A DNA stretch of 64,000 nt from Rhodothermales bacterium (GCA_039944855.1 JBDUXZ010000020.1:377145-441144); one strand, 5' to 3'. Positions 88-62,906 are shown, counted from the first letter of the stretch. The notes: generated by a model from the sequence alone, not told the origin. Program-made: numbers and translations.

Positions 88-113
88 CGCGCCACCTCTT
101 TTCTCCTCTCTCG

Positions 114-374: not shown

Positions 375-412
375 CCTACTTTACGATCTCCCGTCACCAA
401 TCCCTTCGCCCG

Positions 413-3009: not shown

Positions 3010-3075
3010 GCCAGGCCCGGGCGTACCTTTCGTTCCCTCTCCCCGCCATCCGATCTCCGTCATCCGAACCATCCC

Positions 3076-3693: not shown

Positions 3694-3753
3694 GCGAACC
3701 CTCTGGGCGAGCGAGCCCGGTGCGTCCGAGAAACGTGCCGCGCCCCACCTGCC

Positions 3754-6755: not shown

Positions 6756-7019
6756 ATGGCGAAGAACCACGGACCGAGCGTCAAAAAAGACGACACCTAC
6801 GAAGAACTCCGCGATAAGGGCTACTCCAAAGAGAAGTCCGCCCGCATCGCGAACGCGCAGGCGAACGGCGGGCAGCACCCGTCGAAGAAGGGCGGCCACG
6901 CGAAAAAGTACGAGGATCGCACGAAGGACGAACTCTACGAGCAGGCGAAGCAGGTTGGCATCGAGGGCCGCTCGAAGATGAGCAAGAGCGAGCTGATCGA
7001 CGCGCTCCGCAACCACTGA
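6756..7019 (+). CDS. Small hydrophilic protein with a C-terminal Rho_N/SAP-like helix-extended-helix domain
   Basis: 87 aa. The C-terminus TKDELYEQAKQVGIEGRSKMSKSELIDALRNH matches the Rho termination factor N-terminal domain pattern. The N-terminal part is basic and probably disordered. Confidence 0.7.
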   Translation: MAKNHGPSVKKDDTYEELRDKGYSKEKSARIANAQANGGQHPSKKGGHAKKYEDRTKDELYEQAKQVGIEGRSKMSKSELIDALRNH

Positions 7020-7085
7020 GTGATCGCGGAGTGTTCCGGTGGGGGCGGGAGGTGGTAGGTTTGGCTTCTCCCAACGCCCCTGCCG

Positions 7086-46570: not shown

Positions 46571-48085
46571 TTATCGGATGACGAGCACCTTACGCGTGGC
46601 CGTGCGCTCGCCGTCGGTGAGGCGAACGAAGTAGACCCCGGCGGGCAGGCCGCGCGTGGCCCACGTGACGGAGCCGGAGCCGGCCGGCCGGCGGCCCGCG
46701 TCCAGCACGGCGACCTCGCGCCCGAGCACATCGAACGCCGTGAGGGCCACGTCCCCGGCGTCGTCAAGCGTGTACGGAATCGTGGCGATCGAGCGGACAG
46801 GGTTCGGGAACGGCACGCCGAGGCCGAACGCGTCGGGCGCGGTGTCGTCCTCGGCCGCCGTCGTCGTGAGGGCGAAGACGAAGGCGGCGCCGGTGTCCTC
46901 GGCGTCGCCGTCGGCGTCGGGGCTGCCGACGACGGTGAGGCCGTCGCGGAGGGCGACGTCGTTGCCGAAGAGCGCGGTCTCCTCCAGCCCGGCGACGCTC
47001 AGCCGGTTCTCCGGGGCCCAGACGCCGTTCTCACGGTCGAACGTGTAGACGGCCCCGGCCGCCACGTCCGTGCCGTCGAGCGGGGCGCCCACCGCCGCGC
47101 GGTCGCCCTCCACGCTGACCGACGTGCCGAACTGCGCGTTGTCCTGCGGGGCGACGGAGATGAGCCGGAAGGCCTGCACCCACGGGGTCGCGCCTGCCCC
47201 CGTGCGCTCGAAGACGTACGCTGCGCCCTGCTCGTTGGGCGTCGAGAGCGGGGCGCCGACGAAGATCGCCGTCCCGTCCGTGGCGACGTCGAAGCCGAAG
47301 CGGTCGTTGGGCTCGACGGCGTCGGGCGAGAGCTTCTGGACTTGCTGCCACGTGCCGTCCCCGTCGCGCTCGAAGACGTACGCCGCGCCGGGGCTGTCGG
47401 GCACGATCTCGTTGAAGAGGCCGACGACGAGCACGTCGCCGCGGAGCGCAACGGAGAAGCCGAAGCGCTCGCCGGGGCCGGCGTCGGCGGCGGTGAGCTG
47501 CTGGGCGAAGCTCCACGCGCCGGAGGCGTCGCGCGTGTAGAGGAAGACGGCCCCCGCCTCGTCCCCAGCGGCGTCGTTTGCGAAGGCTCCGACGGCGGCG
47601 GTGGCGTCGCTGATCGCGACGGCTGCGCCGAACTGCTCTTCGAGCGCCGGCGTCGGCGCCTTCAGCTTGGCGACGTCGAGCCAGTCGCCCATCGCATCGT
47701 CCCGGCGGAAGACGTAGGCCGCGCCGCTGTTGATCTCCCCCTCGCTCTCATACGGCGCCCCGATGAGGACCTCGGTCCCATCGAAGTCGGTGGCGGCACC
47801 GAAGGCGGGGTCGAACTCGCCGCCCGTTTCGAGGCTGCTCGGGACGAGCTGCTCGTCGAGCGTCCACGTGTCCGCGCCGGCCTCGCGGACGAAGACGAAC
47901 GCCCGCCCAATCGCCCCGGCCTCGCCGGGCTCGCCGACGACGATGTAGTCGCCGCTGAGCGCGACGGCGCTGCCGAACTGGCTGCCGGGCGTGGGGTTCG
48001 GGTCGGTCAGCGTCTGGAGGAGGGCGGGCTGGCCGAGCGCGGGCGCGGCGGCGAACAGGACGAGGAGCGCGAGGAGGCGGGACAT
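46571..48085 (-). CDS. Secreted beta-propeller protein with FG-GAP-like repeats and a T9SS C-terminal sorting domain
   Basis: Seven-fold repeat of ..FG.SVA..GD..VVG.P....G..GAAYVF.R... The C-terminal PFPNPVRSIATIPYTLDDAGDVALTAFDVLGREVAVL...GVYFVRL...TRKVLVIR is a T9SS CTD. Confidence 0.8.
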   Translation of the reverse strand: MSRLLALLVLFAAAPALGQPALLQTLTDPNPTPGSQFGSAVALSGDYIVVGEPGEAGAIGRAFVFVREAGADTWTLDEQLVPSSLETGGEFDPAFGAATDFDGTEVLIGAPYESEGEINSGAAYVFRRDDAMGDWLDVAKLKAPTPALEEQFGAAVAISDATAAVGAFANDAAGDEAGAVFLYTRDASGAWSFAQQLTAADAGPGERFGFSVALRGDVLVVGLFNEIVPDSPGAAYVFERDGDGTWQQVQKLSPDAVEPNDRFGFDVATDGTAIFVGAPLSTPNEQGAAYVFERTGAGATPWVQAFRLISVAPQDNAQFGTSVSVEGDRAAVGAPLDGTDVAAGAVYTFDRENGVWAPENRLSVAGLEETALFGNDVALRDGLTVVGSPDADGDAEDTGAAFVFALTTTAAEDDTAPDAFGLGVPFPNPVRSIATIPYTLDDAGDVALTAFDVLGREVAVLDAGRRPAGSGSVTWATRGLPAGVYFVRLTDGERTATRKVLVIR

Positions 48086-48205: not shown

Positions 48206-48916
48206 TCACCCCGCGCTGCCCGCCGAGTCGACGGGAGTCTCGATGAGCCGGTCGGCGTCCACCCACCCGTCGTGGAGCTCGATCAGGCGGCTGCCGTAAG
48301 CCGTCCACCGCTCGGAGTGGGTGACCTGGATCACCGTCACGCCGTCGTCCTCATTGAGGATGCGGAACGCCTCCATCACCTCCTCGCCCTGCGAGCTGTG
48401 GAGGTTGCCCGTCGGCTCGTCGGCGAGGATGAGCCGGGGCCGGATGATGAGCGCGCGGGCGACGCCGACGAGCTGCTGTTGCCCGCCCGAGAGCTGGTGC
48501 GGGAAGAGGTCGCGCTTAGCGACGATGCCGAAGCGGTCGAGCATCTCGGCCACGCGGGCCTGCCGCTCGGCCTTGGGCACCTTCGTGTAGAGCAGCGGCG
48601 TCTCGAGGTTCTCGTACACCGTCAGCTCGTCGATGAGGTGGTAGGCCTGGAACACGAACCCGATGTGCTCGCGGTGGAGCGCCGTCCGCTGCCGCTCGCT
48701 GAGCTGGTGGACGGGCTCGCCCTCGAAGAGGTACGCGCCCTCGCTCGGCTCCTCCAGCATCCCGATGATGTTCATGAGCGTGGACTTCCCCGCACCGCTC
48801 GGGCCCTGGATCGTCACGAACTCGCCCTCGCGCACGGTGAGGTCCACGTTGCGGAGGACGTACGTTTTCTGGAGGCCTTGCTTAAAAAACTTGCTGATGC
48901 CGCGGAGCTCGATCAT
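48206..48916 (-). CDS. ABC transporter ATP-binding protein (MacB/LolD-type)
   Basis: Walker A GPSGAGKSTL, Q-loop, signature LSGGQQQLVGVARAL, Walker B LILADEPTGNL and H-loop VTHS. Confidence 0.9.
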   Translation of the reverse strand: MIELRGISKFFKQGLQKTYVLRNVDLTVREGEFVTIQGPSGAGKSTLMNIIGMLEEPSEGAYLFEGEPVHQLSERQRTALHREHIGFVFQAYHLIDELTVYENLETPLLYTKVPKAERQARVAEMLDRFGIVAKRDLFPHQLSGGQQQLVGVARALIIRPRLILADEPTGNLHSSQGEEVMEAFRILNEDDGVTVIQVTHSERWTAYGSRLIELHDGWVDADRLIETPVDSAGSAG

Positions 48917-48968: not shown

Positions 48969-51344
48969 CTACTGATCCCGCAGCACGTCCGCTGGCTTCA
49001 CCTTCACGAGCCGGTGAGTCTGCATCGAAAGCATCATCGTCGCCAGGAGGAAAACGAGGACGTTGGAGAGGACGAAGGGCGCAGCGCCGAGTGATATCTC
49101 CACCGGCGCGAGGAACAGCACCGTGCGGAGGCCCAGGTAACACAGGGGCGTGGCGATCAGCGTAGCGAGGCCTAACATGACCAGGAACTCGCGGTTGACC
49201 AGCAAGACGATCTGCCCCGCTGGGGCACCCAGCGCCTTGCGCACGCCGACCTCCTTGATTCGGCCCGCGGCGCGTTGCGAGGCGATGCCGAACAACCCCA
49301 TGCAGGAGATGAGGAGGGCGAAGAGCGCGAGGTACGCGATCAGGACAGAGAGGCCCTTCAAGGACTGGGGCGTGAAGACCTCGGCCTGAGCGAAGGCGTC
49401 GAACGGGGTGCCCGGGAACGCGCGCTCCCACCGATCGCGGAGGGTGGCGGCCACCGGGTCCGTGGCCCCGGTCTCGACCCGGATCACCATGAATCGGTGC
49501 TGCGAGACGTCGGCCAGCCCCATCACGACCGGGACGGCCGTGCCCATCAGCGGGGCCAGCAAGAAGTCGTCTACGACGCCGACCACCGCGAAGGCTGAGC
49601 CGCCGATCCGCACGGACTCCCCGACGGGGTCGGCCCACCCCTGCTCCGCGGCGAAGGTCTGGTTGACCACGACCGACCGCGCGCTGTCTGCCCCGAACAT
49701 AGAGCCGAACGCCCGCCCGGCCGCCACACCGAGGCCCACGGTCGCCAGGTAGTCGGGTCCGACTCCGAAGTGGACCACCTCCCGGTCGGCGTCCGCCACC
49801 TGGACGGTGAGGCGTCGGCGCGTGGCACCGATGTGATGGGCGGCCCCCGCGACCTGACGCACCTGGCTCATCGCGGAGGCCTCGCGGCGGAGCCAGGCGT
49901 GCTGCTCCGGGCTCTGGGTCGGGACCACGAGAAGGGAGGATGGGTCGTAGCCCCAGTCACCGCCGAGGAGCTTGTCGTCGAGCGAGGCCGTGAACACGGC
50001 GAGGCAGATCGTGATGAACGCCAGCACGAACTGCACGGTCGTCAGGGTGCGGGTGAGGCCCTTCTTCTCCGCCAGCTTCAGCTTCCCGCGCAGGACCTCG
50101 ATGGGCTGGAAGGCGGAGATGTAAAAGGCGGGATAGGCCCCGGACACCAGGCCGATGAAGGCGAGCAGCCCGACCAGGAACACCCAGAACCCGGGGGCAC
50201 CCAGGAGGTCGAGGGGGATCGGCCGGGCGAGCCGCGCATTCATGAACGGGAGGGTCACGGTCCAGGCCAGCAGGATCCCGCCCAGCAAGGCCAGCAGGCA
50301 GAGCACCACGTTCTCCGTGAGGAACTGCGTGATGAGTTGCCTCCGCTCCGCGCCCAGCGTCTTGCGGATCCCGATCTCTTTGAGGCGGCGTGCGGCGGTC
50401 CCCAGCGAGATGGTGACGTAGTTGAAACACGCGACGAGCAGCATCAGCACGGCGATCACGCCTAGCATCAGCGACTCCCACACCAGCGGTTCCTGCATGG
50501 CCCGGGCCTCGATGGTCCAGGCTGTCAGCCAGTCCGGGTGCCGGACGCTGTCGAGGAAGAACGACGTTGCCTGCCGGACCTCACCGGCGGCGTTTTGGAC
50601 AGGCACGTAGCGGTCGAGTTGCGCTGCGACGGAGCGGGCATCGTCCGGTTGCCGAAGCAGAAGGAAGGTCGCCTCCGTGAAAGCCGCCCAGTCCCCTGAG
50701 TCGGCGAGGCCGAGCGCACGTTGCTTCTCGTAGCCTACCAAGAGATCGAAACGGAAGCTGGCGTTGCGTGGGAAGGGGGCCGCGACGCCCGCCACGGTTA
50801 GCGTCTCGGCCGTGCCGTCTCCGCCGGTCGTCTCCCCGAACCGAACGTCGAGCGTCTGGCCCACCACATCGTACCTGCCGAAATACTTCATCGCCATCTC
50901 CGCGCTCAGGATCACGGCGTCGGGATCGGCTAGGGCCGCCCCGCGCCCGTGAAGCAAGGGGAAGGTGAGCACCTCGAAGAACCCCACGTCGGCGAAAGAC
51001 ACCGTCTCGTGAAAGGCGTCACCGTCGGTCCGCACCATCGCCGGGTGGTGGGCGACGCGGACGGCGCGCTCGACCTGGGGAATGTCGGCGACGAGGGCCG
51101 GGCCGAGGGGGGCGGGAGCGGTACCCCAGCGTTGCGGTCCGGCGTCGCGGTCCACCGTGTGCCCGACGAGGAAGAGGCGCTCGCCGTTCGCGTGGAAGTC
51201 GTCGTTGACGTTGATCACACGCACGATGAGGAACAGCGTGATCGCGCACGCCACGGCGGCTGACAGGCCGACGAGGTTGATCAGTGAAGCCACCTTGTTC
51301 TTCTGCACGTTGCGGAAGCCCAACAGCAGGTAGTTCTTGAGCAT
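48969..51344 (-). CDS. MacB/FtsX-type ABC permease, duplicated (two MacB_PCD + FtsX modules, ~790 aa)
   Basis: N-terminus MLKNYLLLGFRNVQKNKVASLINLVGL. Two FtsX 4-TM modules, each with EIGIRKTLGA / EVGVRKALGA loops. C-terminus ADVLRDQ. Confidence 0.9.
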   Translation of the reverse strand: MLKNYLLLGFRNVQKNKVASLINLVGLSAAVACAITLFLIVRVINVNDDFHANGERLFLVGHTVDRDAGPQRWGTAPAPLGPALVADIPQVERAVRVAHHPAMVRTDGDAFHETVSFADVGFFEVLTFPLLHGRGAALADPDAVILSAEMAMKYFGRYDVVGQTLDVRFGETTGGDGTAETLTVAGVAAPFPRNASFRFDLLVGYEKQRALGLADSGDWAAFTEATFLLLRQPDDARSVAAQLDRYVPVQNAAGEVRQATSFFLDSVRHPDWLTAWTIEARAMQEPLVWESLMLGVIAVLMLLVACFNYVTISLGTAARRLKEIGIRKTLGAERRQLITQFLTENVVLCLLALLGGILLAWTVTLPFMNARLARPIPLDLLGAPGFWVFLVGLLAFIGLVSGAYPAFYISAFQPIEVLRGKLKLAEKKGLTRTLTTVQFVLAFITICLAVFTASLDDKLLGGDWGYDPSSLLVVPTQSPEQHAWLRREASAMSQVRQVAGAAHHIGATRRRLTVQVADADREVVHFGVGPDYLATVGLGVAAGRAFGSMFGADSARSVVVNQTFAAEQGWADPVGESVRIGGSAFAVVGVVDDFLLAPLMGTAVPVVMGLADVSQHRFMVIRVETGATDPVAATLRDRWERAFPGTPFDAFAQAEVFTPQSLKGLSVLIAYLALFALLISCMGLFGIASQRAAGRIKEVGVRKALGAPAGQIVLLVNREFLVMLGLATLIATPLCYLGLRTVLFLAPVEISLGAAPFVLSNVLVFLLATMMLSMQTHRLVKVKPADVLRDQ

Positions 51345-51377: not shown

Positions 51378-51656
51378 TCAGGGTTGGGCGGGCGTCGGCG
51401 CTTCGCGCTGCGTGCGGAGCCGGAACATCACAGGCACGCGGTCGGCCGTCGGCGTGCCGATCTGGACGAGCAGCCACTCGTCGCCGTGGGCGGCGATGAA
51501 CGCGCGGAGCGCGTCGACCCGCGAGTCCATCTCTTCGGGCCACTCCAGCGTCTCGACGCGGTACTGCAAGCGCTGCTTCTCCCCGTCGATCATCACGTCG
51601 AGGTCGATGGTCTGGGTTTGGTCGATCGGGGGGATCGGGACGCAGATCTGGCTCAT
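51378..51656 (-). CDS. 92-aa soluble acidic protein of unknown function embedded between two permease genes
   Basis: ATG 51656: MSQICVPIPPIDQTQTIDLDVMIDGEKQRLQYRVETLEWPEEMDSRVDALRAFIAAHGDEWLLVQIGTPTADRVPVMFRLRTQREAPTPAQP. Gaps of 35 and 33 nt to the flanking genes, same strand. The rest of track ORF 51378-53177 is a shadow frame. Confidence 0.55.
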   Translation of the reverse strand: MSQICVPIPPIDQTQTIDLDVMIDGEKQRLQYRVETLEWPEEMDSRVDALRAFIAAHGDEWLLVQIGTPTADRVPVMFRLRTQREAPTPAQP

Positions 51657-51691: not shown

Positions 51692-54070
51692 CTATTCGTA
51701 GCGGAGCGCTTTGACGGGGTCGGTCGTCGCCGCGCGGAGGGCCTGGTAGCTCACGGTGAGGAGCGCCACGGCGAGGGCGAGGCCGCCGGCGAAGAGGAAG
51801 ACGCCGGGCCCGAGCGCGATGCGGTAGGCGAAGTCGGCCAGCCAGTCCCGCATCACGAAATACGCCAGCGGCGCCGCGATCACGAACGCTACACCGACGA
51901 GCGCGAGGAACTCCTTCGACAGCAGCGCCACGAGGCCGGGCACGCTCGCGCCGAGCACCTTCCGCACGCCGATCTCCTTCCGCCGCTGCTCGGCCGTGAA
52001 CGTCGCGAGCCCGAAGAGTCCGAGGCAGGCGATGACGATCGCGAGGACGGTGAAGCCGCGCGAGAGGCGCGCGAAGTTGGCCTCTTCCTGATACTGCCGC
52101 GCGAACTCCTGGTCGAGGAAGCTGTACTCGAACGGGTAATCCGGGTTGACCGCGCGCCACGCGACTTCGACGGCAGCGAGCGTCCCGGTCACGTCGGCGG
52201 GGCGGAGCTTGACGGCGAGCAGCGGGTTCTGCGCCGGCTGGTAGAGCATCATCAGCGGCTCCACCTGGTGCCGCACCGAGGCGTAGTGGAAGTCCTTGAC
52301 CACGCCGACGACGGTCCGCTCGGTCTCGCCGAACGTAAGGTGCTTGCCGACGGCGTCCGTCCACCCGAACGCCCGCACGGCCGCTTCGTTGAGGAGCACG
52401 GCCTCCGTCGTGTCGGTGCCGAAGGCGGGGGAGAAGTTGCGCCCGGCGGCGAGTTCCATGCCCATCGTCGGGAGGAACTGGTCGTCGATGCCGAGGGCGC
52501 TGATGATCCAGACGTCCTCCTCGCTCGCACCCTCGGGGAGCACGCCGCGCCGGCCGAGCTGGCGGCCCGGCATCGACGTCGCGCCCGCGATTCCGGCGAC
52601 GGAGGGCGCGCGGCGGAGCGCTGCTTCGAGCGCGTCGGCGTTGCGCTGGAGCTGAGCGTCGCCGAGTTCGAGCACGAGGACCTGGTCGCGCTGGTAGCCC
52701 ATGTTCTTGTCCATGATGAACCCGAGCTGCTCTGACACCACGAGCGCCCCGACGATCATCACGACCGACGCGGCGAACTGCGTCACGACGAGCGCGCGCC
52801 GCAGCAGCCCGCCCCGCGCGCTCCCGCCGAACGACCCCTTGAGGACGGCCGCCGGCTGGAACTGCGAGAGGACGAACGCGGGGTACGCCCCGGCGAGGAG
52901 CGCGACGAACAGCATCACGCCAACCAGCAGCAGCGCGAACGTCGGGTCGGCGAGCACGCCGAGCGCGAGCTGCTTGCCGAGCGCCGCGTTGACGACGGGC
53001 AGCGAGGCCGCGACGAGGCCGAGCGCGACAGCGAACGCGAGCACGCACAGCAGCAGCGACTCGCCGAGGTGCTGCCACACGAGCTGCGAGCGGTTCGCCC
53101 CCATCGACTTGCGCAGCCCGACCTCGCGCGCCCGCTCCGCCGACCGCGCCGTCGCGAGGTTCATGAAGTTGAAGCACGCGATGAGGAGCACGAACACGGC
53201 CACGGCCGAGAGCCCGACGACGTAGCCCTGATCGCTCTTGCCCGTGCTCTCGTCGAAGAGGATGTCGGACGAGCGGAGGTGGACGTCGGCGAGCGGCTGG
53301 AGCGTCACCGAGAAGTTATCGCCGACCTCGTTCCGGCGGATGATCTCCTCCATTCGAGGGAGCACAGACGCCGCCGCGGCCGGGTCGCGGAGGACGACGT
53401 AGGTCGTCAGGCTGATGCTGTTCCACGAGTCGAGGAACTGCCGGAAGCCGTCCTCGTCGGGCCCCGGCACGAGCGACTGGAGGAGGTCGAACTGGAGGCT
53501 CGACGCGACGGGTGGATCGGCGGCGACGCCCGTCACCCGCACGTCCGTGTCGTGGTTGAGCGTGATCGTCTGCCCGAGCGCCTCGTCGTCGCCGAAGAGG
53601 CGTCGGGCCGTGGACTCGGTGAGGACGACGGTGTTCGGCTCGGCGAGGGCCGTCGCCGCGTCGCCCGCGCGGAGCGGGAAGTCAAAGACGACGAAGAACG
53701 ACGGCTCGGCGAGGACCGTCGCCTCAGCGTAGAGGTCCGTGTCCCCGACGGTCATCAGCTGCCGCCCGACGCCGTTGAGCCGGACCGATTCCTCGACCTC
53801 GGGCAGTTCCGCCTCCATCGTCGGGCCGAGTGCCGGGAGCGTGATGCCGACGCGCGTGCTCGTGACGCCGAGCGCCTCGTCGATCGTCAGCACGCGGAAG
53901 ATCCGGTCCGCCTTCGCGTGGCCCCGGTCGAAGGCGAGGTCCTGGCGGACGCTCAAGAAGATGAGCAGGGCACACGCCATCCCGATGGCGAGGCCGGCGA
54001 TGTTGATGAACGAGAAAGCCTTCCGCTTGGCGAGGTTGCGGAGGGCGATTTTGAGGTAGTTCGTCAGCAT
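51692..54070 (-). CDS. MacB/FtsX-type ABC permease, duplicated (~792 aa)
   Basis: Start chosen at ATG 54070 (MLTNYLKIALRNLAKRKAFSFINIAGL) by analogy with the paralogues. It has EVGLRKSMGA and EIGVRKVLGA loops and the C-terminus DPVKALRYE. Confidence 0.9.
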   Translation of the reverse strand: MLTNYLKIALRNLAKRKAFSFINIAGLAIGMACALLIFLSVRQDLAFDRGHAKADRIFRVLTIDEALGVTSTRVGITLPALGPTMEAELPEVEESVRLNGVGRQLMTVGDTDLYAEATVLAEPSFFVVFDFPLRAGDAATALAEPNTVVLTESTARRLFGDDEALGQTITLNHDTDVRVTGVAADPPVASSLQFDLLQSLVPGPDEDGFRQFLDSWNSISLTTYVVLRDPAAAASVLPRMEEIIRRNEVGDNFSVTLQPLADVHLRSSDILFDESTGKSDQGYVVGLSAVAVFVLLIACFNFMNLATARSAERAREVGLRKSMGANRSQLVWQHLGESLLLCVLAFAVALGLVAASLPVVNAALGKQLALGVLADPTFALLLVGVMLFVALLAGAYPAFVLSQFQPAAVLKGSFGGSARGGLLRRALVVTQFAASVVMIVGALVVSEQLGFIMDKNMGYQRDQVLVLELGDAQLQRNADALEAALRRAPSVAGIAGATSMPGRQLGRRGVLPEGASEEDVWIISALGIDDQFLPTMGMELAAGRNFSPAFGTDTTEAVLLNEAAVRAFGWTDAVGKHLTFGETERTVVGVVKDFHYASVRHQVEPLMMLYQPAQNPLLAVKLRPADVTGTLAAVEVAWRAVNPDYPFEYSFLDQEFARQYQEEANFARLSRGFTVLAIVIACLGLFGLATFTAEQRRKEIGVRKVLGASVPGLVALLSKEFLALVGVAFVIAAPLAYFVMRDWLADFAYRIALGPGVFLFAGGLALAVALLTVSYQALRAATTDPVKALRYE

Positions 54071-54104
54071 CGGCGGTAGCGGCGAAGGGGCTGGACTCCC
54101 CATT

Positions 54105-54121
54105 ACAAGCGATATGCCAGC
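54105..54121 (-). promoter_or_regulatory. Candidate sigma-54 (-24/-12) promoter of the permease operon
   Basis: Coding strand reads GCTGGCATATCGCTTGT, i.e. CTGGCAT-N5-TTGT versus the consensus YTGGCAC-N5-TTGCW. It lies 34 nt from the start codon. An identical 17-mer sits at identical spacing upstream of the paralogue at 57763. Confidence 0.4.
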
Positions 54122-54171
54122 CGCGTCACCCGGCCTAAACGCGAGCACGACGCGGGTGCGGCGGCGGCCGG

Positions 54172-54205
54172 TGTGCGCCAGCGCCCACCCGCTGTGCGCC
54201 AGCGC
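54172..54205 (-). promoter_or_regulatory. Tandem 13-bp direct repeat (candidate activator/enhancer-binding site)
   Basis: TGTGCGCCAGCGC-CCACCCGC-TGTGCGCCAGCGC on the plus strand, with a 21-bp period. It is 50 nt upstream (in the coding sense) of the 17-mer. The same block occurs at 57866-57899. Confidence 0.4.
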
Positions 54206-54411
54206 GCAACGCGTGCCGACCGGCGCGGGAGGCGCCACGCGGACGGTGCGACGGTTCGATGAACGGCGGGGGAGTCGGAATGGGATGAATAGGTTGCGGG
54301 TTGCTAGTATTTGATTCCTTTGGTTTAAAGCAAGCGCGCTAACCCGCTGCCGACTACCTTGAAAGCGGCTTCGGCCCGACCTGCTCCGATCACCTCAACC
54401 CCCGTTGCGCT

Positions 54412-55287
54412 ATGCGATACGTTTCTCTCCTGCTCCTCGCAGGCTTCCTCTCCCCCGTGATCTCCCCCGCTGCCGCGCAAGACGGTCCCGTGTTCTACAT
54501 GACCCAGCACAAAATCCATCAGGCTCGGGTGGACAGCCTCACCGCGCTCACGGAGAAGTACGACATCCCGTGGCACAACTTCGTCGCAGACAACGTGGAG
54601 GGCTACGAGCGGTGGCACATGCGCCACGACACCGGCAACGAGTACAACTTCATGACCGTGACGATGTACCCCGACTGGGATATGGTCCGCGGCGATGAGA
54701 TTCCGTTCGACGACTTCGGTCCGGGGTTCGCCGCTTCGATGGGCATGACCGTGGAGGAAATGGAGGCCGAGGACGGCATGGTCAATACGGCGTTCGAATG
54801 GGCCTATGACGGCTCCGAACACATAGACCAGATCTGGCGACCCATCGCGCGGGCTATCCGGAGTGGGAACGAAGACGGCGACATGAAGCCGGACATGGTG
54901 GCGTACATGACGCAGTTCAAGATCAAGCCTTCGCGCATGGATAGCCTCGTCGCCCTCATCCAGACCTACGACGTCCCGTGGCACACCTTCGTCGCGGAGA
55001 ACGTCGAGGGGTACGAGCGCTTCTGGATGCGCCACGACACCGGCAACGAGTACAACTTCATGGTGGTCACGAACTATCCGAACTGGGACATGATGGACAG
55101 CGTCCCGTACGACGAGCTCTTCCCGAAATTCGCCGCCTCGCAAGGCATGACGATGGAGGAGGCCGAGGGGATGGGCGTAGAGGAGAAGTTCAACTGGGCT
55201 TACGAAGGGGCCGAGCACATGGACCAGATCTGGCGGCCCATCGTGGCGGCGGACATGGGCATGGAGAAGATGGACGAGATGGAGTAG
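54412..55287 (+). CDS. Secreted protein made of two tandem homologous ~120-aa domains, function unknown
   Basis: Signal peptide MRYVSLLLLAGFLSPVISPAAAQ. Residues 27-146 and 163-278 align: VFYMTQHKIHQARVDSLTALTEKYDIPWHNFVADNVEGYERWHMRHDTGNEYNFM versus VAYMTQFKIKPSRMDSLVALIQTYDVPWHTFVAENVEGYERFWMRHDTGNEYNFM. Both end in DQIWRPI. Confidence 0.7.
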   Translation: MRYVSLLLLAGFLSPVISPAAAQDGPVFYMTQHKIHQARVDSLTALTEKYDIPWHNFVADNVEGYERWHMRHDTGNEYNFMTVTMYPDWDMVRGDEIPFDDFGPGFAASMGMTVEEMEAEDGMVNTAFEWAYDGSEHIDQIWRPIARAIRSGNEDGDMKPDMVAYMTQFKIKPSRMDSLVALIQTYDVPWHTFVAENVEGYERFWMRHDTGNEYNFMVVTNYPNWDMMDSVPYDELFPKFAASQGMTMEEAEGMGVEEKFNWAYEGAEHMDQIWRPIVAADMGMEKMDEME

Positions 55288-55390: not shown

Positions 55391-57763
55391 CTACTCGGTG
55401 CGTAGGGCCTTGACCGGGTCGGCGGTGGCGGCGCGGAAGGCCTGCGTGCTCACCGTCACCAGGGCAATCGCGAAGAGGAGTGCACCAGCGATGAGGAATG
55501 GTCCCGGCCCGAGCCCGATGCGATAGGCGAAGCCGTCGAGCCACGCGTCCATCCCGAGCCACGCTAGCGGCACCGCTATGACGAACGCCACGCCGACGAG
55601 CAGCACGAAGTCGCGGGCGAGGAGCAGCACGAGATTCGCCACGCTCGCGCCGAGCACCTTTCGCACGCCGACCTCGCGCGTCCGACGCTCCGCCGTGAAC
55701 GAAGCCAGCCCGAACAGCCCGAGGCACGCCACGAAGACGGCGAGGAACGCGAACACGCTCACGATCTGCCCCGTCCGCCGCTCGTTCCGGTAGAGCCGGT
55801 CGTACACGTCGTCGAGGAAGCGGTACGAGAACGGGCGGTGTGCAGCGAACTGGCCCCAGACGGTCTCGACGTGGTCCAGCCCGGCGCGCGTCTCGCCCGG
55901 CGCGAGGCGGATAGCGAGGTTGAACACGTTGCCCGGATCGTACCAGATGGAGAGGGGCTCGATCGTCTCGTGGAGCGAGCGGAAATGGAAGTCCTCGACG
56001 ACGCCGAGCACCTCGCCCCACCGGCTGTCCACGGCCACGCGCCGTCCCACCGCTTCCTCCGGGGTCCAGCCGAGCCTGGCGACGGTCGTCTCGTTGAGGA
56101 TGTGCAGATAGTTTGCCGAGTCCGGCTCCGGCGGGTCTGCCGGGAAGCCGCGCCCGGCGACGAGCTGCAGCCCGAGCCCATCCACGACGGTGGCCTGTGC
56201 GGGGAGGCCTTTGATCAGAAACTCGTCTTCCTCAGCGAGGCCTTCCGCGTGGAAGCCGGAGGTCCAGCCGAGCTGGCCGGGAATCTGGTTGATGCCCGCC
56301 GTCGCCACGATGCCGGGGTGCTGGCGCAACGCCACCTCCATCGCCGGGTATTTCTCCAGCAGGATCTGGTCGTTGAGCGGGAGCACGACGAGGTGCTCCT
56401 TGTCGAACCCGAGCGCCTGATCACCCATGAAGCGGAGCTGGCTGAGGACGACGAGCGTCCCCGCGATCAGGAACGCCGAGATCCCGAACTGGAGCACGAC
56501 GAGCCCCTTGCGCAGCCACGTCGCGCCGCCGCCCGCGATGGCTCGGCTGCGGAGCACGCGCGCGGGGTGGAACGCCGAGAGGTAGAACGCCGGATAGCTC
56601 CCGGCTACCAAGCTCACGACGAGGAACGTCCCGGCGATGAGGGCCACGACCCCCGGCTCGCCGAGCGCCGCGAACCCCAGCGCCTTGCCGCTGAGCGCGT
56701 TGAACGCCGGCAGCCCGAGCCCGACGATCCCGAGCGCGAGCAGCACCCCGCCGAGCGTGAGGAGGGCCGACTCGCTATAGAACTGCCCGACGAGTTGTCC
56801 CCGGTACGCCCCGAGCGACTTCCGCAGCCCGACCTCTTTGGCTCGCTGCCCGGCGCGCGCCGTCGCGAGATTCATGTAGTTGATGCACGCGATCAGCAGG
56901 ATCAGCAGCGCCACCGTCGCGAACCCGTAGACCGCCGTGCGGTCGCCCGTCGCGTCGAGGTCGTACGCGATGTCGGTGCGGAGGTGGATATCGGTCAGCG
57001 GTTGGAGCGCGAGGATGCGGACGTTCTCCTCGTTCTCGGCCCGGAGCCGCTCGGTGAGTGCATCGATCTTCGTCTGGAGCGGCGCGGCGGCCTCGGCGTC
57101 TGGGAGGCGGAGGAAGGTGAAGAAGTTGGCCGAGCCCCACTGCTCGTTCTTCGCCCAGTTCTCCCGAGAGGCAAAGGATGCGAGGAAGTCGAACGAGAAG
57201 TGCGAGGTCGCGGGTACGTCCTCCATCACGCCTGTCACCTCGAACGCCTGATCGTTATTACGGACGATCGTCTGCCCGAGCGGGCTCGCGTCGCCGAAAA
57301 ACTTCTCGGCCGTCGACGCCGTGAGCACGGCCGTGTTGGGACGATTCAGTGCCGTCGCCGCGTTGCCTGCGAGGAGGGTGAACCCGTCGAAGACGTCGAA
57401 GAACGTCGAGTCGGCGAAGTAGAAGTGGTTGTCGTCGAAGATCCGCTCCCCCGCGCGGACCACGCCGCCGTGGGCCTCGATGCGGGTGGCGGCGAGCACC
57501 TCGGGAAACTCCCGCCTCAGGAGGGGCGCGACGATGTTGGGACTGATCGCGATCGTCGCGTCGAGCTGTGGGACCTCCACGTTGACGCGGTAGACCGACT
57601 CGGCGCTGGGGTGGAAGCGGTCGTAGCTCAACTCCTCGCGCACGAAGAGGAGCAGGAACAGGCAGCACGCGAGGCCGACCGCGAGGCCGACGATGTTGAG
57701 CGCGGCGTACCCGGGCTGACGGCGGAGATTCCGGAGGGCGATGCGGAGGTAGTTCGTCAGCAT
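55391..57763 (-). CDS. MacB/FtsX-type ABC permease, duplicated (~790 aa), apparently monocistronic
   Basis: Start at ATG 57763 (MLTNYLRIALRNLRRQPGYAALNIVGL) by paralogue alignment. It has EVGLRKSLGA and EVGVRKVLGA loops and the C-terminus DPVKALRTE. The track start at 57832 adds 23 non-conserved codons. Confidence 0.9.
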   Translation of the reverse strand: MLTNYLRIALRNLRRQPGYAALNIVGLAVGLACCLFLLLFVREELSYDRFHPSAESVYRVNVEVPQLDATIAISPNIVAPLLRREFPEVLAATRIEAHGGVVRAGERIFDDNHFYFADSTFFDVFDGFTLLAGNAATALNRPNTAVLTASTAEKFFGDASPLGQTIVRNNDQAFEVTGVMEDVPATSHFSFDFLASFASRENWAKNEQWGSANFFTFLRLPDAEAAAPLQTKIDALTERLRAENEENVRILALQPLTDIHLRTDIAYDLDATGDRTAVYGFATVALLILLIACINYMNLATARAGQRAKEVGLRKSLGAYRGQLVGQFYSESALLTLGGVLLALGIVGLGLPAFNALSGKALGFAALGEPGVVALIAGTFLVVSLVAGSYPAFYLSAFHPARVLRSRAIAGGGATWLRKGLVVLQFGISAFLIAGTLVVLSQLRFMGDQALGFDKEHLVVLPLNDQILLEKYPAMEVALRQHPGIVATAGINQIPGQLGWTSGFHAEGLAEEDEFLIKGLPAQATVVDGLGLQLVAGRGFPADPPEPDSANYLHILNETTVARLGWTPEEAVGRRVAVDSRWGEVLGVVEDFHFRSLHETIEPLSIWYDPGNVFNLAIRLAPGETRAGLDHVETVWGQFAAHRPFSYRFLDDVYDRLYRNERRTGQIVSVFAFLAVFVACLGLFGLASFTAERRTREVGVRKVLGASVANLVLLLARDFVLLVGVAFVIAVPLAWLGMDAWLDGFAYRIGLGPGPFLIAGALLFAIALVTVSTQAFRAATADPVKALRTE

Positions 57764-57797: not shown

Positions 57798-57814
57798 ACA
57801 AGCGATATGCCAGC
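57798..57814 (-). promoter_or_regulatory. Second copy of the sigma-54-like 17-mer
   Basis: Coding strand GCTGGCATATCGCTTGT, again 34 nt from the start codon (57763). Confidence 0.4.
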
Positions 57815-57865
57815 GTCCCCCGAGTCGCTCAAATAAGAGCGATGGGCGCGTGCGCGGCCGGTCGG

Positions 57866-57899
57866 TGTGCGCCAGCGCCCACCGGCTGTGCGGCAGCGC
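57866..57899 (-). promoter_or_regulatory. Second copy of the tandem 13-bp direct repeat
   Basis: TGTGCGCCAGCGC-CCACCGGC-TGTGCGGCAGCGC on the plus strand, with one mismatch in the distal unit and a 21-bp period. It is 51 nt from the 17-mer. Confidence 0.4.
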
Positions 57900-58047
57900 G
57901 CAGGTCGTCGCTATATGCCTAGGCATTCAGGGTATGAGGAAGTGCCTTGGCCGGCGAGGCTTGGCTCCCCTAGAATATCTGGGTATACGAGGTCGAGGCT
58001 GCCGCTCCGGCATCCTCTTCCCGTCCTCGACCCTAGCCTGCCCAGCT

Positions 58048-59901
58048 ATGCCTCCTCGCTACGCGCTGTCCTTCGCCCTCTTCGCTCTCGTCTTCACGCT
58101 CGCACCGACGCTCCACGCGCAGTCGTTCACCCGCGTGACCACCGGCCCCGTTGCCACCCACAGCGATAACAGCCTCGGCGTCGCGTGGGGCGACTACGAC
58201 GACGACGGCGACCCGGACCTCTTCGTGGCGAACGGCGGCCAGCCGAGCCGACTTTACCGCAACGACGGCGACGGCACGTTCTCGGCCGTCGCCAACGGCC
58301 CGGTCGTCACGACGCTCGGCGATTCGCGCGGTAGCGTCTGGGCCGACTACGACAACGACGGCGATCTCGACCTCTACGTCAGCAACCGGGGCGGGAACGT
58401 GCCGCCGCCCGTCACGCAGCCTGCGCAGGCGAACTTCCTCTACCGCAACGACGGCCCGCCGACCTTCGGCTTCACCCGCGTCAACGACATGCCGCCCGCG
58501 ACGGAAGCCAATTTCACGTGGAGCAGCAGCTGGGTCGATTACGACAACGACGGTGACCTCGACCTCCACGTGCCCGACAACCTCCACGCGGCCGACGACT
58601 TCTTCTACGAGAACGACGGCAGCGGGCAGTTCACGTCGGTGACGCCCACGTTCGTCGAGCCCGGCTCCGAGCCGAGCACGGGCGTCGCGAGCTGGATCGA
58701 CTTCGACGGCGACGGCGATCAGGACCTGCTCCTCGCCAAGAGTGGGCGCTTCCTGCCGGGCCAGGCCGAGAACCACCGCCTCTTCCGCGGCCTCCTTGCG
58801 GACACCGGCACGCTCGGGTTCGAGGAGGTCACCACGGGCGGCGTCGTGACCCATTTCGACAACGACTTCCAGGCGAGTTGGGGCGACTATGACAACGACG
58901 GCGATCCCGACCTCTTCCTCGGCCACGCCGGCGGGCCGCGCGGCGTCTCGAACTACCTCTACCGCAACGACGGTGACGGCGTGTTCACCGCCATCACGAG
59001 CGGCCCCGTCGTGACCGACACCGACGGCACGCTCGGCAGCGGCTGGGGCGACTACGACAATGACGGTGACCTCGACCTGCTCGTCGCGAACGGCGGACTC
59101 GACAAGCTCTACCGCAACGACGGGGACGGCACGTTCACCTCGATGACATCGGCCGACGTAGGGTCCATCGTCTCGACCTCGGGCAACTCCTGGGGCGCGG
59201 CGTGGGCCGACTACGACAACGACGGATTCCTCGACGCCGTCGTCGTCAACGCGGCCACGGGGCCGGGTGGCAACTCGAACGCTCTCTACCGCAACACCGC
59301 CACGAACGGCAACCACTGGATCAACATCCGCGTGGTCGGTACCACGTCGAACCGCTCCGGCATCGGGGCCGTCGTCCGCGTGAAGGCGACGATCTCGGAT
59401 GCGCCGACGTGGCAGACCCGCTACATCATGGGCAGTCCGACGGGCGACCGCAGCCAGGACGACCTCCGCGCGCACTTCGGTCTCGGCGATGCCACAGAGA
59501 TCGACTCGGTCGTCGTCGCGTGGCCGTCGGGGGCGGAAGACGTGTACGAGGCTGTGGGGAGCAACGCGTTCTTCCGCGCCGTCGAAGGCGGCGACCTCCT
59601 GCCGGTCGCGAGCGAAGATGCTTCCGTACCGAGTGGCGACGAGGCGGGGCTTCGGCTCGACCTCCACCCGAATCCGGCGCGGGACCGGGCGGCGCTGTCG
59701 TTCACGCTCGCGCGACCGGGCGTAGTGCGGGTGCGGATCTACGACGTGCTCGGGCGGATCGTACGGACACCTCCGGCAGAGCAGCACGCGGCCGGTGAGC
59801 AGCAGGTGACGCTGGACGTGGCGGGCCTGCCCGCCGGCGTCTACCTCATCGCGGTCGAGGCGGGCGGGCAGCGGCGGGTGGAGCGGATGGTGCGGTTGTG
59901 A
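58048..59901 (+). CDS. CRTAC1-family secreted protein (FG-GAP/VCBS repeats, ASPIC/UnbV domain) with a T9SS C-terminal sorting domain
   Basis: ATG 58048 with a signal peptide. Repeated WGDYDNDGDLDLFVAN...LYRNDGDGTF units. UnbV/ASPIC core NHWINIRVVGTTSNRSGIGAVVRV. C-terminal CTD HPNPARDRAALSFTLARPGVVRVRIYDVLGRIV...GVYLIAV. Confidence 0.85.
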   Translation: MPPRYALSFALFALVFTLAPTLHAQSFTRVTTGPVATHSDNSLGVAWGDYDDDGDPDLFVANGGQPSRLYRNDGDGTFSAVANGPVVTTLGDSRGSVWADYDNDGDLDLYVSNRGGNVPPPVTQPAQANFLYRNDGPPTFGFTRVNDMPPATEANFTWSSSWVDYDNDGDLDLHVPDNLHAADDFFYENDGSGQFTSVTPTFVEPGSEPSTGVASWIDFDGDGDQDLLLAKSGRFLPGQAENHRLFRGLLADTGTLGFEEVTTGGVVTHFDNDFQASWGDYDNDGDPDLFLGHAGGPRGVSNYLYRNDGDGVFTAITSGPVVTDTDGTLGSGWGDYDNDGDLDLLVANGGLDKLYRNDGDGTFTSMTSADVGSIVSTSGNSWGAAWADYDNDGFLDAVVVNAATGPGGNSNALYRNTATNGNHWINIRVVGTTSNRSGIGAVVRVKATISDAPTWQTRYIMGSPTGDRSQDDLRAHFGLGDATEIDSVVVAWPSGAEDVYEAVGSNAFFRAVEGGDLLPVASEDASVPSGDEAGLRLDLHPNPARDRAALSFTLARPGVVRVRIYDVLGRIVRTPPAEQHAAGEQQVTLDVAGLPAGVYLIAVEAGGQRRVERMVRL

Positions 59902-60004: not shown

Positions 60005-60349
60005 ATGCCCCGCAAACCCGGCGAGCTGCTGCAAGGCACGCTCGACATGCTGATCCTGAAGACGCTCACCGCCGGGCCGATGCACGGCTACGCCATCGTG
60101 CGTCGCCTGCAACAGGTCTCCGACGAGGCACTCGTCGTCGAGGAGGGCTCGCTCTACCCGGCGCTCTACCGCATGGCGGCGAAGGGCTGGATCGAGGCCG
60201 AGTGGGGCACGTCGGAGAACAACCGCCGGGCGAAATTCTATCGACTCACGTCGGCGGGAAAGCGCCAGCTCGATGAGGAGGTCGCGTTCTGGGAACGGTT
60301 CACGACCGCCACGGCAAAGGTGCTTCAGTTCGCGCCGACGGAGGGCTGA
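60005..60349 (+). CDS. PadR-family transcriptional regulator
   Basis: LKTLTAGPMHGYAIVRRLQQVS...EGSLYPALYRMAAKGWIEAEWGTSENNRRAKFYRLTSAGKRQL is the canonical PadR winged-helix pattern. Confidence 0.9.
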   Translation: MPRKPGELLQGTLDMLILKTLTAGPMHGYAIVRRLQQVSDEALVVEEGSLYPALYRMAAKGWIEAEWGTSENNRRAKFYRLTSAGKRQLDEEVAFWERFTTATAKVLQFAPTEG

Positions 60350-60352
60350 GCC

Positions 60353-61600
60353 ATGCCTGCCCGCTGGCCCCGCCCGCTGACGCCGCACCGCCGCCGCGCC
60401 CTCGCTTGTGAGATCGAGGAGGAACTGCGGACGCACCTCGCGCTGCGGGCCGACGACAACCGCCGCGCGGGGATGGCCCCCGCCGAGGCCGAGGCTGACG
60501 CGCTCGACCGCTTCGGCGACGTGGAGCACATCGCGGCGGCCTGCCTCTGGGCCGAGCAGACGCATCCGTTGCGCGAGGTGCAGCGGCTTGTCGTGACCGG
60601 GCTCGTGTTCGCCGTCGGGTTCGGGGCGTTCGCCGCCGCGTTCTCGCTCGCCGTCGCCGTCTTCGTCCGCCCGCTCCGTTTCGACGACGCCGACAGGCTC
60701 GTCCGGTCCGGGGCGGGCTGGGAGGACGCGCTCGTCCCGCCGGACGTCGTCGCGCGGTGGCAGGCGGAGGGCACCAGCTTCGAGCGCCTGACGGCGTTCA
60801 ACGCGCTGGATTTGGCCCTCGGCGGTGACGCGCCCGACGAGCGGGTCGAGGTGATGCTCATCAGCGACGACTACTTCCGTGTCTTCCGCGTCGCGCCCAT
60901 CGTGGGTCGCACCCTCAGCCACGGCGAGCGCGAGGAGATTCTGATCAGCGACGGACTCTGGGAGCGACGGTTCCAGCGGAGCCGTTCGGCGCTCGGCGCG
61001 ACGCTCGACCTCGACGGGCAGCCGCACACGGTCGTCGGGGTGATGCCCGAGGCGGCCCAGCTCTCGCACCGCGTCGACCTGTGGCACCGGCTCCCGGCGT
61101 CGTGGCCGGCCGACCGGGGGCTCTACGTCGTCGGCCGGCTCCGCGAGGGCGTGACGCTGGCGGAGGTCCGCGCCGAAGTCGCGCCGCTGACGATCGCGCA
61201 GGCCCCCACGCTCCACCCGCTGAAGCAGCTCTATGCTGACCCCGTTCGTCCCATGGCTTGGCGAGCGTTCGGCCTGTCGGCCCTCGTGCTGCTGGCGCTG
61301 GCGTTCGCGGCGCTGCGGCACGCGCATGGTCGCGCGCGTCGGGCCGCACTCTACGGCGGCGACGACGCCGACCCGGCGGTGCAGATCGGGATGGCGGTGG
61401 GGGCCGCGCTCGCCGGCCTCGTCCTCGCGCATGCCACGCAGGCGCTGGTCTACGACGACCTCCTCGGCCGGTGGGGCCCGATGTTCGACCGCGGGCTCGA
61501 CGGACCCGTCGTGCTCGGCGTGCTTGGGGTCGGGCTCGCCGTGGGGGTGTTGCTCGTGGCGGGCTCACAGCAGAGAGGGGGGGTGCGGCACCGGGCATGA
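60353..61600 (+). CDS. Permease-prefix-domain protein with a MacB_PCD-like periplasmic domain (half-size, divergent ADOP/FtsX-like)
   Basis: The N-terminus EIEEELRTHLALRADDNRRAGMAPAEAEADALDRFGDVEHI is the prefix typical of PadR-linked FtsX permeases. It continues with a TM helix, a ~200-aa periplasmic domain and 3 weakly conserved TM helices. Only 415 aa. Confidence 0.65.
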   Translation: MPARWPRPLTPHRRRALACEIEEELRTHLALRADDNRRAGMAPAEAEADALDRFGDVEHIAAACLWAEQTHPLREVQRLVVTGLVFAVGFGAFAAAFSLAVAVFVRPLRFDDADRLVRSGAGWEDALVPPDVVARWQAEGTSFERLTAFNALDLALGGDAPDERVEVMLISDDYFRVFRVAPIVGRTLSHGEREEILISDGLWERRFQRSRSALGATLDLDGQPHTVVGVMPEAAQLSHRVDLWHRLPASWPADRGLYVVGRLREGVTLAEVRAEVAPLTIAQAPTLHPLKQLYADPVRPMAWRAFGLSALVLLALAFAALRHAHGRARRAALYGGDDADPAVQIGMAVGAALAGLVLAHATQALVYDDLLGRWGPMFDRGLDGPVVLGVLGVGLAVGVLLVAGSQQRGGVRHRA

Positions 61601-61706: not shown

Positions 61707-62906
61707 ATGCGCATCGCTACGCTCGGCCTCCTCCTCCTCGGTTTCACAGGGGCCGTCTCGGCCCAGACCGTGACCACGTTCACCGAACCGTTCACCGCGA
61801 GCGGTGGCGTCTCCGTCGGTCCGGACGGCGACATCTACGTCGCCGATTTCGGGCGCTTCCTCAACCAGAACGGCGGCACGACGGTCTACCGCGTCACGCC
61901 GGAGGGCGACGTCTCCGTCTTCGCCACGGGCTTCGCCGGAGCGTCGGGCAACGCGTTCGACGCCGAAGGCAACCTCTTCCAGTCGAACATCGGCGGCAAC
62001 CGGATCTCGAAGATCACACCCGACGGAACGGTGACGACATACGCGACGGAAGGTATCGTCGCGCCCGTCGGCGTCGCCGTTGATGCCGCGGGGAACGTGT
62101 ACAACACGAACTGCCAGTCGCCGGGCCGCATCTCGAAGACGACGCCCGACGGCACCACGACGACGTTCGCGTCGAGCCCGCTGATGAGCTGCCCCAACGG
62201 CCTCACGATCGATGACGACGGCAACCTCTACACGGCCAACTTCAACAACGGCCGCATCGTCAAGATCACGCCGGACGGGGCGGCGAGCGAACTCGTTTCG
62301 CTCTCGAATGCGCCGATCGGCAACGGGCACCTCACGTTCGCGAACGGACGGCTCTACGTCTGCAACTGGGGCGGCTTCATCTACGAGGTGACGCTCGGCG
62401 GCGTCGCGCGCGTGCTCGCCGGCTCGGGCACCGGCCTCGCCGACGGCCCGGCGGCCGAGGCGCAGTTCTTCCGTCCGAACGGCATCTCGGCGAGCATGAC
62501 GGGTGATACGCTGTACCTCAACCAGACGGCCGAACTCGTCGCGCTCCCGCAGATCCACCCGAACACGGTGCGGATGATCACAGGCGTACGGCAGACGGTG
62601 GACGCCGCCGACGAAGCACCGGACGCCGACGGTCTCGGCCTCGCTCCGAGCGCGCCGAACCCGTTCCGCTCGGCCACGCGGATCGCGTACACGCTGCCGC
62701 ATCCGATGCCGGTCTCGCTCCGCGTGTACGACGTGCTCGGGCGCCCCGTCCGCACGCTCGTCGAGCGGGTCGAGGCGGGGGGCACGCACGAGGTGCGGTG
62801 GGACGGGCGGAGCGACGGTGGGCAGCGGCTCGCCGCGGGCCTGTACCTCTACGCGCTCGCCGGGCTCGACCGCCGCGTCGTGCAGCGGGTGACGCTGTTG
62901 CGGTGA
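61707..62906 (+). CDS. Secreted NHL/SMP-30-like beta-propeller protein with a T9SS C-terminal sorting domain
   Basis: Signal peptide. Six repeats of the type G.A.D..GN.Y.....N.I.KITPDG. C-terminal CTD APNPFRSATRIAYTLPHPMPVSLRVYDVLGRPVRTL...GLYLYAL...VQRVTLLR. Confidence 0.8.
   Translation: MRIATLGLLLLGFTGAVSAQTVTTFTEPFTASGGVSVGPDGDIYVADFGRFLNQNGGTTVYRVTPEGDVSVFATGFAGASGNAFDAEGNLFQSNIGGNRISKITPDGTVTTYATEGIVAPVGVAVDAAGNVYNTNCQSPGRISKTTPDGTTTTFASSPLMSCPNGLTIDDDGNLYTANFNNGRIVKITPDGAASELVSLSNAPIGNGHLTFANGRLYVCNWGGFIYEVTLGGVARVLAGSGTGLADGPAAEAQFFRPNGISASMTGDTLYLNQTAELVALPQIHPNTVRMITGVRQTVDAADEAPDADGLGLAPSAPNPFRSATRIAYTLPHPMPVSLRVYDVLGRPVRTLVERVEAGGTHEVRWDGRSDGGQRLAAGLYLYALAGLDRRVVQRVTLLR

Follow-up and report, generated by a model that had tools for sequence, protein, structure and literature searches.

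Tandem upstream dyads and a sigma-54-type promoter element shared by two paralogous FtsX/MacB-type permease genes, and their probable control by an NtrC-family activator

Promoters of the NtrC/glnAp2 type (also DctD/dctA, NifA, ZraR and AtoC) have a -24/-12 element, i.e., GG and TTG(C) at a fixed spacing, together with two same-face dyad-symmetric sites ~85-110 bp upstream, and are activated by a regulator with a Response_reg domain, a sigma-54 AAA+ domain and a Fis-type HTH, which is paired with a histidine kinase. In the BceRS-BceAB and MacAB-type modules, which detoxify peptides or antibiotics, an FtsX-fold permease and an ABC ATPase lie beside a TCS that apparently controls them, BceR being an OmpR-type, sigma-70-dependent regulator. 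A third system is the ADOP/PadR pair of Acidobacteria (TIGR03434/TIGR03433), in which the permease has a duplicated architecture. In Acidobacteria, Bacteroidota and Rhodothermota the duplicated FtsX/MacB-type (ADOP-like) permeases belong to large families of paralogues; at least one species contains them as abundant proteins, and neither a substrate nor a signal is known for them (PMC3914696). A 2025 in-silico survey (PLoS One, PMC12316311) reported that predicted sigma-54 promoters are overrepresented in front of COG0577 FtsX-like permeases of Bacteroidia, Opitutia and gamma-Proteobacteria, and in its accessible text this association is called the first such evidence. That text gives the enrichment at the level of COGs; an activator, a UAS or an example from Rhodothermota is not named in it. 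Our literature search found no experimental study of sigma-54 with FtsX/MacB permeases in Bacteroidota or Rhodothermota, or of rpoN in Rhodothermales.

The window, i.e., the whole 64-kb stretch of DNA analysed here (69% GC), contains two genes for such permeases, A and B, which share two blocks in their upstream regions. The initial annotation had read these blocks as a UAS for an enhancer-binding protein plus a sigma-54 promoter. Both halves of this reading are supported by the comparative evidence presented below, and we consider it likely that A and B are each transcribed from a sigma-54 promoter activated by an NtrC-family enhancer-binding protein (bEBP) at two tandem dyads.

Genes of the window and the shared upstream blocks

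Permeases A and B, proposed to be paralogues in the initial annotation, are 44% identical, and each is composed of two MacB_PCD+FtsX units. Permease C is ~31% identical to both. The three proteins align with TIGR03434 over its full length, with scores that are all under the curated cut-off of 622 bits, and are therefore described here as ADOP-like and not as ADOP members; an exact-protein look-up of permease A gave no match on record. The gaps in the A operon are of 33-52 nt, and permease A, the 92-aa ORF, permease C and the ABC ATPase, which is the last gene, probably form one operon. The 92-aa ORF family is a conserved small component of the permease cluster. A 90-aa homologue was also seen in L121, between the last permease and the ABC ATPase. 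Promoters A and B both sit in divergent intergenic regions (Table 1). Beyond promoter B, a PadR gene is directly followed by a prefix-domain ADOP-type gene that may be truncated or frameshifted, so that the window holds two differently regulated classes of duplicated FtsX permeases. Secreted proteins with FG-GAP, NIDO or NHL/SGL-type repeats are encoded around the permeases (46571-48085, 43169-45184, 58048-59901 and 61707-62906); three of these four carry a T9SS C-terminal sorting domain, and the one at 61707-62906 matched FlgD_ig and not Por_Secre_tail. A bEBP gene was detected in the window neither by a motif scan nor by tblastn with a related bEBP, and neither an MFP gene nor a histidine kinase partner gene is present within the 64 kb.

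Table 1. Features of the window that are relevant to promoters A and B.
Feature	Position	Strand	Remarks
ABC ATPase, 236 aa (ABC_tran)	48206-48916	-	47% identical to the ATPase of the L206 operon
Permease C, 791 aa, third paralogue	48969-51344	-	TIGR03434, 210 bits; without promoter motif of its own
Small ORF, 92 aa, between A and C	51378-51656	-	no Pfam match; probably co-transcribed with A
Permease A, 792 aa, ADOP-like, DarB-like	51692-54070	-	TIGR03434 (ADOP), 325 bits
Promoter A, sigma-54-type -24/-12 element gcTGGCATatcgcTTGT	54105-54121	-	GG at 54118/54117, GT at 54106/54105
Promoter A, possible third half-site CCGCACC (weak)	54155-54161	-	17 nt after the right half of dyad 2
Promoter A, proximal putative UAS dyad 2 TGGGCGCTGGCGCACA	54172-54187	-	centre ~-87; GG 53 nt beyond dyad end
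Promoter A, distal putative UAS dyad 1 TGCGCGCTGGCGCACA	54193-54208	-	centre ~-108; 1 mismatch to TGTGCGC-N2-GCGCACA
Secreted protein, unclassified family	54412-55287	+	divergent from A
Permease B, 790 aa, paralogue of A	55391-57763	-	TIGR03434, 296 bits; apparently monocistronic
Promoter B, sigma-54-type -24/-12 element	57798-57814	-	same 17-mer as A
Promoter B, third half-site-like GCGCACG	57849-57855	-	17 nt after the right half of dyad 2
Promoter B, putative UAS dyad 2 TGGGCGCTGGCGCACA	57866-57881	-	GG of -24 element 54 nt beyond dyad end
Promoter B, putative UAS dyad 1 TGCGCGCTGCCGCACA	57887-57902	-	
FG-GAP/UnbV_ASPIC protein with T9SS sorting domain	58048-59901	+	divergent from B
PadR regulator, ADOP-associated subfamily	60005-60349	+	TIGR03433, above cut-off; 2 kb from promoter B
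ADOP-type gene, 415 aa, permease-prefix domain 1 + MacB_PCD	60353-61600	+	directly after PadR

The block proximal to the genes is a 17-mer, GCTGGCATATCGCTTGT, which had been annotated at an equal distance from both start codons. As described, the two copies are identical, and 34 nt separate each of them from its ATG (54070 and 57763, minus strand). No third match was present in the window at up to 3 mismatches, and two matches were obtained in 0 of 100 dinucleotide shuffles. Furthermore, the motif TGGCAY-N5-TTGY occurs in the 64 kb only at these two sites (0.07 expected). Of the 10 bases specified by the extended consensus TGGCAC-N5-TTGC, the core TGGCAT-N5-TTGT has 8; its GG and 10-nt spacing are intact, and its -12 doublet is GT instead of the near-invariant GC. 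The -24/-12 element of promoter A is kept at the orthologue promoters of L121 and L123. Transcription from such elements begins ~12 nt downstream of the -12 element, and is here predicted to start near 54093 (A) and 57786 (B) on the minus strand, giving a 5′UTR of ~23 nt. A scan for sigma-70 promoters and terminators found nothing on the permease strand, where no sigma-70-like hexamer pair is present, its sole result being a sigma-70-like site for the divergent FG-GAP gene, and a scan for an ORF with an RpoN box found none in the window or in the fetched loci of relatives.

On the other strand, the divergent FG-GAP/T9SS gene is preceded by a sigma-70-like TTGGCC-N18-TAGAAT (57947-57976, +), the counterpart of which in L121 is TTGCCT-N18-TAGAAT. 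A GG-N10-GC match, GGAAGTGCCTTGGC, overlaps this site and lies 35 nt from the B dyads (45 nt in L121). It could be a divergent sigma-54 promoter that shares the UAS of B, the conserved TTGNCC-N18-TAGAAT being the simpler explanation.

The distal block had been described as two copies of a 13-mer, GCGCTGGCGCACA, and these are present at 54172-54184 and 54193-54205 and at 57866-57878 and 57887-57899 (one mismatch), 8 nt apart, with the proximal copy beginning 50 nt (A) or 51 nt (B) upstream of the 17-mer. The description as two 13-mers proved too narrow, since in a pairwise alignment the conserved block is a continuous one of ~41 nt, with 39/41 positions identical including the 8-nt spacer. Each repeat unit is an imperfect 16-bp dyad, TG[C/G]GCGC-TG-GCGCACA, of the form TGT-N10-ACA (consensus TGTGCGC-N2-GCGCACA), which resembles the format of a NifA-type UAS. 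At both A and B the dyads are exactly 21 bp apart and hence lie on one face of the helix, in the region ~70-150 bp upstream of the promoter where the sites of a UAS, usually two or more, are located. Tandem dyads (up to 3 mismatches, 20-21 bp spacing) were found twice in the window and in none of 100 first-order Markov simulations. The exact 16-mer CTGGCATATCGCTTGT was found at 120 loci in 596 Gb of genome contigs, all of them chance matches in unrelated contexts, a pattern of this length being too short for so much DNA. The DNA between the dyads and the 17-mer, which was said to be unconserved, is not entirely so, as there is a third half-site-like sequence, GCGCAC/CCGCAC, 17 nt past dyad 2 in both copies. 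It was found at the same offset at the L121 A-orthologue, and is absent from L206, L205 and L121 B and from the promoters with a 42-44 nt spacing. In L121 this third half-site belongs to a long inverted repeat (fold z = -4.7).

Related loci and the linked NtrC-type regulator

The window and eight related high-GC (Rhodothermales-like) contigs or genomes were systematically scanned for tandem dyads plus GG-N8-TTG. The 11 dyad-pair promoters that resulted are those of A and B in the window, two each in L121 and L209, and one each in L123, L205, L206, L207 and L210. Their common layout is dyad, 4-5 nt, dyad, 42-44, 53-54 or 62 nt, and GG-N8-TTGN, with GG-N8-TTG on the permease/MFP side in 11/11 and on the opposite side in 2/11. 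The genes that they face are a permease gene, a small gene in a permease cluster, or an MFP/ABC ATPase/permease operon. The dyad-to-promoter distances fall into classes about one helical turn apart and are periodic at ~10-10.5 bp (Rayleigh R = 0.89-0.91), with a nominal p of ~1e-4 that is optimistic because the promoters are related and not phylogenetically independent. G(-13) does not vary among the relatives, the base that follows it may be T, C, G or A, and some of the -24 elements are GGTAC, GGAAC or GGTCC.

In the closest relative, L121 (89% identity to permease A), the A-orthologue shares both its dyads and GCTGGCATATCGCTTGT with the window. The B-orthologue also has the dyads, followed by another promoter, aaGGCATAGGGCTTGCgt, which has a proper GG-N10-GC and is located 62 nt past the dyads versus 54 nt in the window. 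This comparison suggests that the promoter-proximal region of B was turned over or converted between the window and L121, with the overall layout kept. The region compared in L121 is 2487-2723, in which the B-orthologue has AGGCATAGGGCTTGC at 62 nt and a spacer that cannot be aligned with that of window B. In L123 (59% identity) the dyads TGTGCGCCGCCGCACG and TGTGCGCCAGCGCGCA, separated by 5 nt and with a 21-bp period, are followed 44 nt on by GCTGGCATATGGGTTGT; here, as judged from the sequence, the asymmetric dyads are inverted relative to the promoter, and period and distance are kept, as would be expected of a DNA site and not of a leader RNA. L209 has a second dyad pair with GGTCCgggccTTGCT before a 207-aa gene within the permease cluster, and a single dyad with the same promoter before a further permease gene. 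At the L122 orthologue neither dyads nor the promoter motif were found, and at the L208 orthologue TGGCAT-N5-TTGA is present and dyads are not. A palindromic REP-like element, (C)TGGTGGCCACCAG, occurs in nearly every intergenic region of the L123/L124 permease array (e.g., at ~1700-1880, 4300-4450, 6850-7100 and 7850-8000 of L123).

A metagenome scan provided more distant homologues (37-46% identical, n=74), mostly from lower-GC Bacteroidota. The canonical GGCAT-N5-TTGC is present within 300 nt upstream in 11 of the 74, versus ~1.6 expected from the background rate. The homologues inspected have two TGT-N10/11-ACA dyads ~21-22 bp apart (e.g., TGTACAAAAACGAACA, 5 nt, TGTTTCAAAAACGAACA), mostly 43-55 nt upstream of GGCAT-N5-TTGC, with the exception of L159, where this distance is 110 nt. 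Dyads upstream of a permease or MFP gene were found in the low-GC loci L149, L159, L165, L179, L180, L194, L195, L199 and L200. The half-site core CGNACA is kept across the phylum, and the remaining positions of the site drift with base composition. The presence of the same dyads and promoter in low-GC homologues indicates that the regulatory layout is old, widespread and phylum-wide. The RpoN-like reading of the 17-mer is strengthened both by the GG-N8-TTG of all 11 dyad-linked promoters and by the canonical sequence in the low-GC homologues.

The initial annotation had asked whether an activator gene sits beside another paralogue, and this was observed in four relatives, L206, L209, L210 and L165, in which the dyads are placed between the bEBP and MFP genes. 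In L206 (58% permease identity) the genes of an NtrC-type regulator and of a histidine kinase are oriented divergently to an MFP/ABC-ATPase/permease/permease operon, and the regulator has the domains Response_reg, Sigma54_activat and HTH_8 (i.e., receiver, sigma-54 AAA+ and Fis-type HTH). The intergenic region contains CGTGCGCTGCCGCACA-ggcgg-TGGGCGCCAGCGCACA, which is identical to the window B block at 33 of 37 positions; aGGAACggcccTTGCA follows 43 nt after the dyads, and the ATG is 32 nt farther. A homologue search with the L206 regulator revealed the same divergent arrangement of regulator and operon in L209 (Rubrivirga sp. S365) and L210, where the tandem dyads are followed after 43 nt by GGCACgcctcTTGG (L209) or GGCACcgccgTTGT (L210). 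In L165, a distant Bacteroidota contig, a bEBP gene is divergent from MFP/ABC/permease genes, with dyads and GGCATcgtacTTGC in between. Six of these bEBPs do not differ in their C-terminal HTH, GLTRKSLYRRIEKYGL, and carry either a GAFTGA or a GSFTGA loop, and intact Sigma54_activat/GAFTGA regulators are found in Rubrivirga, Rubricoccaceae and other Rhodothermales. The regulator scores under every NCBIfam equivalog cut-off (PrsR, AtoC, NtrC and ZraR). The MFP is DarC-like, and the permeases are DarB-like with scores under the cut-off.

Alternative readings of the conserved blocks

The dyads could be operators of the PadR protein encoded nearby, the real promoter being of the sigma-70 or Bacteroidota type. 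PadR proteins bind to inverted repeats. The PadR gene of the window is of the ADOP-associated subfamily and close to promoter B, PadR regulators partner with ADOP-type permeases, and PadR genes flank the permease arrays of L121 and L122. We rejected this reading, which we regard as very unlikely, because it is bEBP genes, and not PadR genes, that accompany the dyads: in L206, L209, L210 and L165 they adjoin a bEBP gene, and no PadR was found among the called genes of the first three or in L165 over 1-4300. Furthermore, the PadR gene of the window has its own downstream partner, the prefix-domain ADOP-type gene, and is part of a separate gene set on the downstream side of the FG-GAP gene, and L122 has no dyad pair, including upstream of its PadR gene, where a different long inverted repeat is present. 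The position of the dyads, ~85-110 bp upstream of the predicted start and helically phased to GG-N8-TTG, is also the geometry of an activator and not of a repressor.

A bEBP was the only regulator repeatedly found adjacent to the dyads, and its Sigma54_activat AAA+ domain and GAFTGA loop also bear on the possibility that the dyads are the target of a classical, sigma-70-dependent response regulator and that TGGCAT-N5-TTGT is a coincidence. The variable -12 GC, and the fact that neither the window nor the fetched loci showed an rpoN gene, would agree with such a regulator. We judge it highly improbable, given the GG and TTG at a fixed 8-nt spacing in 11/11 dyad-linked promoters, the low-GC relatives with canonical GGCAT-N5-TTGC, and a permease strand that has no sigma-70-like hexamer pair.

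The similarity between A and B might also be a relic of duplication or gene conversion, or reflect a dispersed REP/MITE-like repeat, in either case with no regulatory role. The 17-mer is identical at 17/17 positions, although RpoN needs only ~8, and the window B promoter resembles that of A, whereas the L121 B-orthologue differs in -24/-12 sequence and spacing (62 vs 54 nt); taken together, these two observations suggest local conversion or turnover. As an explanation of the blocks, an origin of this kind without function is extremely unlikely. A longer dispersed repeat, which the initial annotation had named as a possible refutation, was looked for, and only two copies, equidistant from paralogous ATGs, occur in 64 kb. 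The element is also kept at orthologous promoters elsewhere, and the layout persists where the permeases are 37-60% identical and the flanking DNA cannot be aligned, with TGT-N10-ACA and GG-N8-TTG retained while the base composition of the sites changed between genomes.

Finally, that the blocks are a cis-regulatory leader RNA (a riboswitch or attenuator) transcribed from a promoter farther upstream is likewise extremely unlikely, and the initial preference for protein-binding sites holds: the GC-rich palindromes could form hairpins, and the leader folds of B (z = -2.5) and of the L121 A-orthologue (z = -4.7) are better than those of shuffles, but the predicted folds differ between copies, those of A (z = +0.3) and L206 (z = +1.4) are no better than shuffles, the dyad centre of only 2 nt is below the size of a hairpin loop, the window has 0 Rfam matches at gathering score, the L123 block is inverted relative to the gene, and in four genomes the block adjoins the gene of a DNA-binding activator.

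Proposed mechanism and comparison with known systems

In the sigma-54/bEBP reading that we favour, an RpoN -24/-12 promoter, TGGCAT-N5-TTGT, would drive each permease gene from a start ~23 nt before the ATG. A histidine kinase partner would phosphorylate the NtrC-family response-regulator bEBP, and the phosphorylated activator would oligomerise on the tandem 16-bp dyads, located near -87 and -108 on the same helix face. DNA looping would then bring the dyad-bound activator to the closed complex of the RpoN holoenzyme, which it would open by hydrolysing ATP. Its gene would be located outside the window, as the relatives suggest, in which it lies next to a "core" MFP/ABC-ATPase/permease operon that has the same UAS and promoter. 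Since the window has no activator gene and the core operon of the relatives is beside the bEBP gene, permease A (with the small ORF, C and the ABC ATPase) and permease B appear to be dispersed satellite members of the bEBP regulon. No gene for the bEBP, the kinase partner, the MFP or RpoN lies in the window, so their presence in this genome is assumed from the relatives; RpoN dependence, which protein binds here and how far the operons extend are likewise what we infer. The permeases are MacB-, DarB- and ADOP-like, and the inducing signal is for this reason perhaps an envelope-active compound.

A broader and rather doubtful proposal is that one conserved NtrC-type TCS, across Bacteroidota and Rhodothermota, might control both an adjacent MacAB-like pump and dispersed "orphan" duplicated FtsX permeases, by means of sigma-54 promoters and a tandem TGT-N10-ACA UAS common to them. 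The orphan paralogues might associate with one shared ATPase and adaptor. If this were true, the swarms of ADOP-like paralogues would constitute a single inducible envelope-defence or export regulon. The UAS motif, the promoter and the candidate TCS offer a direct experimental handle on ADOP-like permeases, and the UAS motif enables members of the regulon to be predicted genome-wide. What is new here is the candidate activator, the UAS consensus, the spacing rules and the satellite-promoter organisation; the advance is incremental, because the arrangement is a conventional sigma-54/bEBP one and the association with FtsX-like permeases had already been noted in the accessible text of the in-silico survey (PMC12316311).

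The elements upstream of A and B resemble those of NtrC/glnAp2-type promoters in the -24/-12 sequence with its fixed spacing and in the two same-face dyads, and the relatives supply a regulator of the same domain composition with its histidine kinase. They differ from that type in their targets, which are duplicated FtsX/MacB-type permeases, in the -12 C, which is replaced by T or variable, and in the half-site, TGTGCGC, which is their own and has a CGNACA core across the phylum. With the BceRS-BceAB and MacAB modules they share an FtsX-fold permease and an ABC ATPase, to which the core operons add an MFP, beside a TCS by which they are apparently controlled. In contrast to those modules, the candidate regulator is a sigma-54 bEBP, and the permeases, each of ~790 aa, are multi-paralogous, ADOP-like proteins with an internal duplication. 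A, B and C have the same duplicated architecture as the permeases of the ADOP/PadR pairs of Acidobacteria; unlike these, they have no prefix domain, and A and B are preceded not by PadR but by a putative UAS and sigma-54 promoter.
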